Source: a plasmid. From it: a stretch of 64,000 nucleotides of DNA. The stretch is from assembly GCF_053078305.1 (NCBI RefSeq), contig NZ_CP166875.1. One strand, given 5' to 3'. Below are positions 15,001 to 18,000 of the stretch, in pieces. The position numbers were made by a program. Each line of letters opens with the position of its first letter. Within the stretch, counting starts at the first letter, position 1.

Positions 15001-18000
15001 ACCGGCATTAGCCAGCGCATTAAAACCAACCGCAGTCGCCATATCCCCTTTAGCTTCCGCCGTGGCTCCAATTGCATTCGAGGCCATCCCCTCAGCAGAA
15101 CTCACCGAACCAAGCGATACTGACAATTCGCCTTTAGCAAAAGTTCTGCTGCCCAGCGCAATACTGCCATCCCCCTTCGCTTCCGATGCCTGATAGTTAT
15201 TCTCTATTTTTTCCCGACCATAAGTCTTACCATGCAAAGGAGTTAAATCATCCCCACCAATAACAATAGCCCCCCATCCGGTAGCTTTGGTATCGCCACC
15301 TATTGCAATTGACTGTTCTTTAGTTGCTTTCGTTTTCGCTCCTATCGCAATAGACTCGCCTGTGTACAAACCTTCCTTCGTGCTAATGTCACCTCCAGCC
15401 TCTGCACTGGTACCAATCGCGATAGAGTTACGTCCTTCAGCCACCGGTGATTTATGGTCGAAATTAATTCCCTTTGATTCATCTTTTGCTGTAAATTTCG
15501 TTGTACCTATTTCAATGCTCTTCCAGTCATCGCCATAGACATCATGGCCAAGGCTGGTTTCATCAACTTCAACAGTTAACTTATTTGTATCTGCCTGAGC
15601 ACTGACCTGTGATATGGATGCCGGATTAAGAACAAGTGATATGGCTATACAGATATGTTTTTTTCTGAGGTTCATATATACCCTCTTTTCTCCTTTATTT
15701 TCTTCCACTCAGTCGGAATAGCATAAAAATCATGCATGAATATTATGTAAGGTGGACTGCCTTCATTTCTTCAGCATCCATTTTTTATAAAGCCAGAAGT
15801 GAACAAAACGGGAACCATTAAAAAGCAGACAAAAGGAAATAAAGTGATTTATAATAATGCGAACATAAAACATATTAAGTTTAAGTAAACTACCCGACAT
15901 TACGCGTTACAGCAGAATGCAGGTACACTACCTGCCATTGACTGACGCACCGGCGAAGGCAATAAAAATGAGATACATTTCACTTCGCAGCAAAAAACGA
16001 AATTCTACAATTTTTCTGATTTTACTGACAGAAAAGCCTGAGAGTTAAATTTAAATAACTTAAAAGATTATGTGGTATAATCAGGTTCATACAGGCCTGA
16101 TTATTTTACGGGGATGTTAACTCTTTCAAATCAACAGTCTACGGAGAAGCAATGTGGTTATGGTCAATAAATGTTCACTGATTTCTTTCACGGTAATACC
16201 CGGGGCACTTCTTGTCCTCTGGTAACAAAGGTAACTGTACATTCGTCTTTGCAACTGACAGTGCATCACGGTTTTGAAGTACCTGCTGCTGTTGTTTTTT
16301 TACTCAGAAAGCGCAGTTACTCTTTATATTTTCCCAGCCTATCTCTTATTTTAATATACATCCACTGTCTGGCGTTTTAAGGGGCTGGCTCACTGGCCAA
16401 GTTGACATTAATCATCATTCCTGTCTTTGTCAGCGGAGACTTCTGCTGTCAGTTTTTTCATCCATACAGAGTGACATTAATTATCCGTAAGCGCACCGTG
16501 AAGGACGTGGGGTAAAAATTAGTTTACAGATAGAGTGACGTTCCAGGGCAACAACTCTTTCACGCGGTTGGCTGGCCAGGTGTTGATGACACTGATCACG
16601 TGGCGTAGCCACGTTTCCGGCTCGATTCCGTTAAGTTTGCAGCTACCGATCAGGCTGTACATCACTGCCGCACTCTCGCCTCCTCCATCAGAGCCGAAGA
16701 ACATGTAGTTACGCCGCCCCAGTGCAACTACCCGGAGGGCGTTTTCACACAGATTATTGTCGATCTCCACCCAGCCATTGCGGCAGTATTCGTTCAGGGC
16801 GTCCCATTGCTTCAGCAGATAGGTGAACGCTTTCGCCGTATCCGAGTGACGCGACAGCGTGCTCATCTGCCCCTGGAGCCACTCATACAACGACTGCATT
16901 AGCGGTACCGTTCTGGCTTTTCTGACCGCCAGTCGCTCTTCTGCCGGACTGCCGCGGATCTCAGACTCGATAGCGTACAGTGCCTCGATAGGGCTGCGTT
17001 TGGGAAACGTACAATATTGTACGGTTGCGCTATTGCGGTAGGGTGTACTCCAACGCTATACGGTATTTGGCAGACCTTTAGGGACATGAGATAACCTAAA
17101 TGCAATAAGAGAAAAGCAATAACTTAAAGGCGATAGCTGATCACGATGAATCAATCAGTTACTTATCCGCATCGATTAAAAAATGCTCCTAACGTACAAT
17201 AATTCCGTTTCCCAAACCGACCCCTCTCATAGCTCACGCTGTTGGTATCTCAGTTCGGTGTAGGTCGTTCGCTCCAAGCTGGGCTGTATGCACGAACCCC
17301 CCGTTCAGCCCGACCGCTGCGCCTTATCCGGTAACTATCGTCTTGAGTCCAACCCGGTAAGACACGACTTAACGCCACTGGCAGCAGCCATTGGTAACTA
17401 AACAAGGTGGATTCCGATATTAGAGTCTTGAAGTGATCACCCAACTACGGCTACACTGAAAGGACAGTATTCGGTATCTGCGCTCCACCAAGCCAGTTAC
17501 CACAGTCGATTAGAAGAGGTCGAAGACTTCTAATCGGACGGAAAAAGCCGCCGCAAGGCGGCTTTTTCCGTTTACAAGCCGAAGATTACGCGCAGCTTAA
17601 AAGGATCTCAAGAAGATCATTTTAATTTTGCTGATCGTTGCTCCCTACCAGTGACCATACGGATAGGGCTTTTCCTTGATAAAATCGCGGATAAATGGAT
17701 CGTAACCATTAGCCTTGATGTAACTGAAATCAATCTGGTTGGGAACGTTTTTGCATATCAGCATATCATCTCCCGTCAGAGTGAACTGCCGGGCAGGATG
17801 TTGGAGTACAACAGGCTCGCCATTATCCTCCAGCCAGATCCGCACGGCCCCTCCCGGTGCCAATCCGATAATCATATTGTCCCGATAATACGTTTTTCCC
17901 GGCTTATAGGTATCAGGATAGGCAGTCAACATCTGCTGCCACGTATCCCGGCTGAACCAGATCTCCGTCTCATATGCCTTTTTATCGATAACCGAATCCC

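Follow-up and report, generated by a model that had tools for sequence, protein, structure and literature searches.

RNA I of ColE1-type plasmids acts in trans and determines their incompatibility, and the rop (or rom) gene is an auxiliary that is not universal among these replicons. The mechanism by which RNA I exerts its control in ColE1 has been summarized (PMC11012335). Cointegration of ColE1-type plasmids with large plasmids by way of mobile elements is an established phenomenon, which includes the truncated ColE1 origin of pE66An, and it has been asked whether a ColE1 origin retains its function in a cointegrate (Ares-Arroyo et al. 2021, PMC8683028). The subject of this report is a truncated ColE1-type replicon that retains an RNA I gene, located at 17225-17622 of a 64,000-nucleotide stretch of plasmid DNA (contig NZ_CP166875.1, assembly GCF_053078305.1), referred to throughout as the window. 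This relic is very probably the replication-dead remnant of a small plasmid of the pS19_141-f type that fused with a large virulence plasmid (ehx, saa) of Shiga toxin-producing Escherichia coli (STEC).

With the ColE1/pMB1-type replicon the relic shares the promoter hexamers and their spacing, an RNA I composed of a tail and three stem-loops, and 97.7% identity over RNA II +180 to +351 (17225-17395). Absent from it are rop, the origin with its RNase H site, and ~190 nt at the 3' end of RNA II. RNA I also departs from that of ColE1: stem-loops 2 and 3 (SL2, SL3) are entirely other sequences with compensating stems, SL3 bears a GCAA tetraloop and loop I differs. The cointegrates described previously (PMC8683028) resemble this locus in that a small ColE1-type plasmid lies within a large IncF-type plasmid, a mobile element occupies the junction and the origin is inactivated. 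In contrast, the host in the present case is not a resistance plasmid but an STEC virulence plasmid, a Tle1/Tli1-like pair forms the cargo, and a miniature inverted-repeat element of 234 bp takes the place of a full transposon or insertion sequence (IS) at the junction. The relic is an already described, ordinary kind of plasmid fossil; this particular locus is undescribed in the literature found, searches on pO113/saa plasmids with ColE1, on RF00106 and on DUF2931 plasmids having returned no account of it.

A ColE1-type replicon without an origin

Positions 1005-594 of ColE1 (NC_001371, minus strand) align with the relic at 338 of 418 positions (81% identity, E 1e-103, blastn). In NC_001371 the RNA II +1 lies at 641 (GCAAACAAAAAAACC), the RNA I start at 751 and the origin motif GGAGCCTATGGAAAAA at 1182-1197, which agrees with published placements of the RNA II and RNA I starts at 555 bp and 445 bp, respectively, before the origin (PMC11012335). 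The homology ends at the equivalent of RNA II +365; owing to indels, this corresponds to 351 nt of RNA II in the window, counted from a start placed at 17575 through homology with the ColE1 start at 641. Missing are the origin and the 3' ~190 nt of RNA II, in which the RNA-DNA hybrid/RNase H region lies. The RNA II promoter is present and is the same as ColE1 605-633, with no origin downstream of it and no complete RNA II running through the region cut by RNase H. The origin-proximal donor segment (pS19_141-f 1930-2123) has no match anywhere in the 64-kb window by blastn, and rop is likewise absent, as the donor Rop finds no match in the whole window by tblastn even at E 10. Because the end of RNA II and the origin are lacking from the entire window, the replicon cannot prime DNA synthesis. 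The initial annotation had described a match of ~400 bp to the RNA II 5' region and RNA II promoter at 17222-17625, stopping before the origin/RNase H region and incapable of autonomous replication; all of this holds, the coordinates being correct to within 3 nt.

The sole near-origin matches in the window are short stretches at 38246-38307 and 24776-24844, which are 74-85% identical to ColE1 1309-1377, a segment 113-181 bp downstream of the ColE1 origin. Possibly sites of the primosome-assembly type, they are unlinked to the RNA I relic. Short open reading frames (ORFs) across RNA II (17288-17401 on the + strand, 17250-17444 on the - strand) have no Pfam or NCBIfam support. The first is labelled 'hypothetical protein' or 'replication initiation protein' in public records; the latter label lacks family support and is most likely spurious.

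An intact RNA I gene of a distinct type

An Rfam cmscan of the whole window yields one full-length match to the RNAI family RF00106, spanning all 102 model positions (1-102) at 17466-17571 (+); its score of 59.8 bits (E 2.1e-8) clears the gathering threshold of 47. The predicted fold comprises a single-stranded 5' tail and three stem-loops, with a minimum free energy of -53.2 kcal/mol (z = -8.3). In an alignment with ColE1 and three relatives all consensus pairs (34/34) are kept in the window copy, and nine base pairs are held by compensatory change relative to ColE1. A terminator scan lists a site at 17550-17562 (+), followed by TTTTT, as well as one on the - strand at 17562-17550. The promoters were located through the ColE1 alignment: a generic sigma-70 scan lists neither of them, since no more than 8 of the 12 consensus positions match (8/12 in the RNA I promoter). 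The proposal that the RNA I gene is intact and possesses its terminator is therefore borne out by the Rfam score, the stability of the fold and the conserved promoter hexamers.

Divergence from ColE1 is regional. Beyond the highly conserved RNA II segment, identity is 29.8% in an indel-rich spacer (17396-17427), 59.1% in RNA I overall (87% in the tail plus SL1, 40% in SL2 and 51% in SL3) and 87.5% in the RNA II promoter region. The term 'loop-specific', under which this divergence had been annotated, understated its extent, as SL2 and SL3 have been wholly replaced together with their compensating stems. By its loops the relic RNA I is a predicted specificity type distinct from that of ColE1. 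As both promoters are unchanged and the fragment is 100% identical to living plasmids, transcription of RNA I and of a primer-incompetent RNA II probably continues, and the two would pair with each other.

Table 1. Positions of the relic, its components and neighbouring features in the window
Feature	Position	Strand	Remarks
IS66-family transposase gene 3' fragment and IS end	16485-16990	-	cut internally at 16990
234-bp miniature element	16991-17224		~34-bp imperfect terminal inverted repeats AGGGCTGCGTTTGGGAAACGTACAATATTGTACG / AGGGGTCGGTTTGGGAAACGGAATTATTGTACG
Absorbed segment, 5.4 kb	17225-22615		equivalent to pS19_141-f 2124 to 6683 and 1 to 907
Truncated RNA II template	17225-17575	-	predicted +1 at 17575, break at 17225; equivalent to pS19_141-f 2124-2474
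RNA I promoter	-35 TTGAAG 17428-17433; -10 TACACT 17452-17457	+	18-nt spacer; hexamers and spacing as in ColE1
RNA I gene, ~111 nt	17464-17574	+	9-nt 5' tail, start 17464
RNA I SL1	17473-17501	+	predicted fold
RNA I SL2	17507-17536	+	predicted fold
RNA I SL3/terminator	17537-17572	+	U tract directly after
RNA II promoter	-35 TTGAGA 17611-17606; -10 TAATCT 17588-17583	-	17-nt spacer; identical to ColE1 605-633
DUF2931 lipoprotein gene, Tli1-like immunity	17645-18349	-	Pfam PF11153, E 3e-33; WP_001253651.1 in relatives
Tle1-like phospholipase effector gene (DUF2235)	18360-20051	-	Pfam PF09994 T6SS_Tle1-like_cat, E 1.7e-17
cer-type XerCD core site of the absorbed plasmid	20129-20158	-	exact 30-nt match; 0 chance matches expected
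Second ColE1-type relic with colicin cluster, without RNA I	32810-36902	+	collinear with ColE1 3899 to 611 (blastn)

The donor plasmid and its cargo

Carriers of the relic and its small relatives were identified by a megablast search of 17150-17700 against PLSDB. Small plasmids match this interval only from 17225 rightward. Among them is pS19_141-f (NZ_CP075646.1), a plasmid of 6683 bp with a complete ColE1-type replicon including rop and origin. The absorbed segment (Table 1) is 97.9% identical to it over 4521 bp and 90.9% over 904 bp (blastn), and the sole part of the donor that is absent from the window is 908-2123, which contains rop and the origin-proximal 195 bp. The origin fragment of the window is 100% identical to that of pS19_141-f and 97-98.7% identical to those of relatives, which comprise pSTEC640_1, pEA5_2 and pEA5_3 of E. 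albertii and pRHBSTW-00814_4 of E. marmotae; its RNA I sequence is the same as the RNA I of pS19_141-f, pSTEC640_1 and pEA5_3. These small plasmids have the DUF2931/DUF2235 cargo, the cer core and the ANR-type regulator gene in common with the window segment. They are, however, complete autonomous replicons of 5-7 kb with rop and a full origin, whereas the window holds only the part from 2124 to 907.

DUF2931 is a domain of the Tli1 immunity protein (bioRxiv 10.1101/2024.03.05.583533). The 3' end of the DUF2931 gene lies 34 bp upstream of the RNA II -35, and gene and RNA II point in the same direction. The toxin/immunity operon of these plasmids, like that of ColE1, lies just upstream of the RNA II promoter in that direction. 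The cer-type core was detected with what we take to be the ColE1 cer core sequence as query, and the surrounding stretch aligns with ColE1 3887-3938 at 94%. The small ColE1-type plasmids that share this RNA I family, from E. coli, E. albertii and E. marmotae, bear toxin/immunity cargo in the style of type VI secretion systems (T6SS) without T6SS genes, either a Tle1-like protein plus DUF2931 or a PAAR protein, an S-type-pyocin-domain protein and DUF6392; in the window the Tle1/Tli1-like pair has been relocated onto an STEC virulence plasmid.

Further observations concern the right-hand part of the segment. A 31-nt imperfect inverted repeat (CACATCCTGTCCCG...) at 21578-21608 and 22585-22615 flanks a ~1-kb piece with the ANR-family regulator, which is 91% identical to the donor plasmid compared with 98% elsewhere in the segment. 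Perfect palindromes of 35-42 bp (GGCCATTAATGCTAATGTATGCATACATTAGTATTAATGGCC) occur at 22615-22656, 23160-23194 and 38605-38638; the first coincides with the right end of the absorbed segment, and two of the copies flank a 155-aa ORF that has no Pfam match.

The junction and the host plasmids

The break lies exactly at 17224/17225, where the right tip of the 234-bp element directly adjoins the ColE1 homology. Copies of this element are found in 1673 PLSDB plasmids; in the records examined it carries no annotation, and no Tn3-family transposase is adjacent to it there. Matching 5-bp flanking repeats are absent: the flanks read CTCGA/TCGAT and TCTCA, a mismatch to be expected of two sides that derive from different molecules. 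The terminal repeats (GGGG...ACGTTA) have what may be a Tn3-family look. In its short non-coding body, terminal inverted repeats of ~34-38 bp beginning (A)GGGG and occurrence in many plasmids, the element resembles Tn3-derived inverted-repeat miniature elements (TIMEs) and IS101-like mini elements; it differs from these in that neither a cognate transposase nor a target duplication has been identified, so that the likeness is one of repeat shape only. To its left, the IS66-family fragment (DDE_Tnp_IS66 profile positions 179-283 plus IS66_C in Pfam) matches, at 99.8% identity, the end of an IS66-family element that is intact in p_STEC435_1. The saa plasmid pSTEC2018_607-a, which has no ColE1 relic, carries the same block of saa, IS66 fragment and element and diverges exactly at 17225.

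Seven large E. coli plasmids (108-133 kb) match the whole of 17150-17700, left flank included; they come from human stool or anal-swab isolates or from sheep. Three were inspected, which originate from Switzerland and from two provinces of China; they carry ehx together with a YadA-like gene that we take to be saa, and MOB-suite assigns the inspected carriers the replicon call ColRNAI_rep_cluster_1857. Other replication systems are present, namely a RepFIB-type RepB gene at the window start in relatives and a repZ-type control RNA at 41944-42094. The relic is thus flanked by DNA collinear with a small ColE1-type plasmid and sits inside a replicon endowed with other replication systems. In pSTEC17_183-a the relic and junction are the same, and the equivalent of 17396-17500 (spacer, RNA I promoter and loop I) is replaced by an allele like that of the chromosomal islands described below.

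The control RNA is a full-length PK-repZ match in Rfam (- strand, 166.7 bits), the control pseudoknot of an IncI/B/O/K/Z-type replicon. Type IVb pilus genes lie further on, and the window as a whole combines F-type with I-type plasmid backbones in a mosaic.

Other integrated ColE1-type replicons

Three further integrated ColE1-type replicons were found, all of them inactivated: one in chromosomal tRNA-Phe islands, one in pRHB06-C19_2 and one associated with colicin genes elsewhere in the window. The first resides in the tRNA-Phe islands of the enteroaggregative E. coli (EAEC) strains 042 and 55989, of O104:H4, and of E24377A and UMNK88, just after an integrase gene and IS1. It is cut at the equivalent of window position 17272 and retains RNA I, the RNA II promoter and the DUF2931 gene; the 042 copy (L004 5826-6932, with ~50 other chromosomes alike) corresponds to window 17272-18380. 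Its identity to the window is 89% overall and 100% over 17512-17631, a mosaic in which 100% stands next to 50%. This mosaic and the replaced patch in pSTEC17_183-a show that such stubs recombine with related replicons.

The second, in the 122-kb IncF plasmid pRHB06-C19_2, has kept rop and the origin motif (L012 6623-7166) and has lost 79 bp between CCCCCTG repeats beside the origin. Strain RHB06-C19 also holds a 6.7-kb plasmid (L013 2663-3298) whose RNA I and promoters are identical to those of the integrated copy, from which it follows that a small plasmid can coexist with an integrated copy of its own RNA I gene. The allele is 93.8% identical to that of the window, with the same SL2 and SL3 and a different loop I. 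A pair of small plasmids in E. albertii BIA_5, whose RNA I molecules differ only by two linker bases and one loop II base, shows how fine RNA I specificity is.

The third lies 10 kb from the RNA I relic in opposite orientation. Its blastn matches to ColE1 cover 3899-4426, 4996-5138 and 496-611, and its genes include exc2, a colicin S4-like pore former (34322-35818), two immunity genes and a lysis-gene remnant, with Pfam matches to the colicin S4 translocation domain, the pore-forming domain and immunity families. It stops inside its own RNA II -35 (TTGAGA, 36896-36901), where a GGGG-type repeat end (GGGGTCCC...) begins. It had been suggested that RNA I relic and colicin cluster together point to one absorbed small colicin plasmid. 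An absorbed small plasmid is indeed documented by the 5.4 kb collinear with pS19_141-f; the link to the colicin cluster fails, as pS19_141-f contains no colicin gene and the RNA I relic is not contiguous with colicin, immunity and lysis genes. Orientation, distance, the duplicated -35 and the gene content of the donor exclude a single absorbed plasmid, and the presence of ColE1 positions 594-611 in both relics indicates two different small plasmids rather than two halves of one replicon.

Beyond this second relic, at 36903-37115, a Tn3-type terminal repeat (GCGCTCAGTGGAACGAAAACTCACGTTAAG) is found at about 37086-37115. The cer-type core listed in Table 1 has a counterpart at 32946-32975 (+); the two are inverted, 12.8 kb apart and one per absorbed plasmid, one being perfect and the other bearing 1 mismatch.

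Origin of the relic and retention of RNA I

Fusion of a pS19_141-f-type plasmid with an STEC virulence plasmid would have proceeded by a transposition-type event at the repeat end of the 234-bp element, yielding a cointegrate from which the remainder was subsequently deleted. The element would already have been beside saa before the join, as it is in related plasmids, and loss of a high-copy origin would be tolerated or even favoured within a low-copy plasmid. RNA I would have been retained by hitch-hiking within 100 bp of the kept immunity gene, together with recent capture. That the capture is recent is suggested by the 100% identity to living small plasmids; and since the RNA II promoter closely follows the toxin/immunity operon and faces the same way, a fragment kept for its immunity gene tends to carry the RNA II promoter and RNA I along with it. 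Hitch-hiking and recent capture provide the simplest account of RNA I retention, for which no function in the large plasmid is needed. The different lesions of the integrated replicons, and the absence of RNA I from the colicin relic, fit a pattern of haphazard breakpoints.

Several considerations weigh against this account. Three independent relics have preserved an intact RNA I, a pattern that could be the work of selection and not of hitch-hiking. The transposition mechanism is read from the position of the junction, and neither a second copy of the element nor a target duplication was found. Transcription of RNA I and RNA II is deduced from promoter identity; the argument from gene dosage, set out below, employs textbook copy numbers; and the case of co-residence in RHB06-C19 involves a sister allele (93.8%, different loop I) on a relic with a different lesion.

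Among the alternatives, the relic might serve as a recombination handle, offering 0.4-5.4 kb of homology for the formation of cointegrates that are conducted to new hosts, or for patch exchange. The island-like patch at 17396-17500 in pSTEC17_183-a and the mosaic of 100% beside 50% identity in the island copy speak for such exchange. A cointegrate of the relic with a living small plasmid was not seen, however, and recombination may be a by-product that need not account for retention of the relic: as an explanation of the locus it is rather unlikely.

The stub might otherwise have been kept as a 3'-end module, with the hairpin at 17537-17572 (GC-rich, with T tracts on both sides) terminating transcripts of the Tle1-like and DUF2931 genes. 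Such a role would suit the terminator-like site listed on the - as well as the + strand, the short distance and common direction of the DUF2931 gene and RNA II, and the conservation of the same unit of DUF2931 gene and stub in the chromosomal relic. Adjacency alone accounts for this co-retention, however, and termination at the hairpin must be inefficient, given that RNA II in living small plasmids has to read through it. We consider this explanation unlikely.

The prospect, raised in the initial annotation, that the relic is an active incompatibility or exclusion determinant, whose RNA I binds the RNA II of small plasmids and thereby lowers their copy number or blocks their establishment, is decidedly poor. 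The RNA I gene, promoter and terminator are intact, and the identity of this RNA I to that of pS19_141-f, pSTEC640_1 and pEA5_3 means that matching targets exist in nature. None of the four complete genomes carrying the exact relic (0/4) also holds a cognate small plasmid, but this missing co-occurrence has no statistical power, as only one such small plasmid is present among 5426 genomes. Against the roughly 15-20 RNA I gene copies provided by a small plasmid the relic would set one or two (textbook values), its own RNA II target should absorb RNA I, rop is absent, and RHB06-C19 accommodates an integrated copy and a small plasmid with identical RNA I. The low-copy location, the RNA II decoy, the lack of rop and the RHB06-C19 co-residence together make strong interference with co-resident small plasmids unlikely; a small dosage effect is possible, and the net effect of the relic RNA I/RNA II is most likely near neutral. 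Its side effects may include weak incompatibility with small plasmids bearing the same loops, a patch of homology for recombination and false 'ColRNAI' calls.

A more elaborate version, to which we attach very little probability, holds that the captured RNA I has been kept as an anti-plasmid device, damping the copy number or establishment of incoming toxin plasmids whose loops match its own, with protection against the toxin itself provided by the neighbouring orphan immunity gene. If true, it would represent a two-part defence, mounted by the large plasmid or the tRNA-Phe island of EAEC/O104:H4, against small 'weapon' plasmids of the Tle1/Tli1 or pyocin type. Finally, an assembly artefact in which small-plasmid reads were wrongly joined, or a chance resemblance, can practically be dismissed: small multicopy plasmids often cause misassembly, but the same junction recurs in 7 complete plasmid records, which reached GenBank through several separate submissions and stem from human and sheep isolates, the break falls at the tip of a mobile element, and the E-values are 1e-103 and 2e-8.

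Implications for STEC virulence plasmids and small toxin plasmids

Recognition of the locus as a remnant of a small plasmid fused with an STEC virulence plasmid has a bearing on plasmid typing. As the ColE1 replicon is dead, the 'ColRNAI' call for these STEC virulence plasmids is misleading, and both their multi-replicon status and their predicted copy number are open to misreading. If RNA I is still expressed, a slight effect on related small plasmids is possible, and nothing suggests a large one.

More broadly, the relic documents that small multicopy toxin plasmids feed their cargo into ehx/saa virulence plasmids and into the tRNA-Phe islands of EAEC/O104:H4. The cargo delivered in this way is the Tle1/Tli1-like pair and, separately, the colicin S4-like cluster. 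Each time the high-copy origin has been inactivated, an observation that bears on the question of whether ColE1 origins continue to function after cointegration (PMC8683028).

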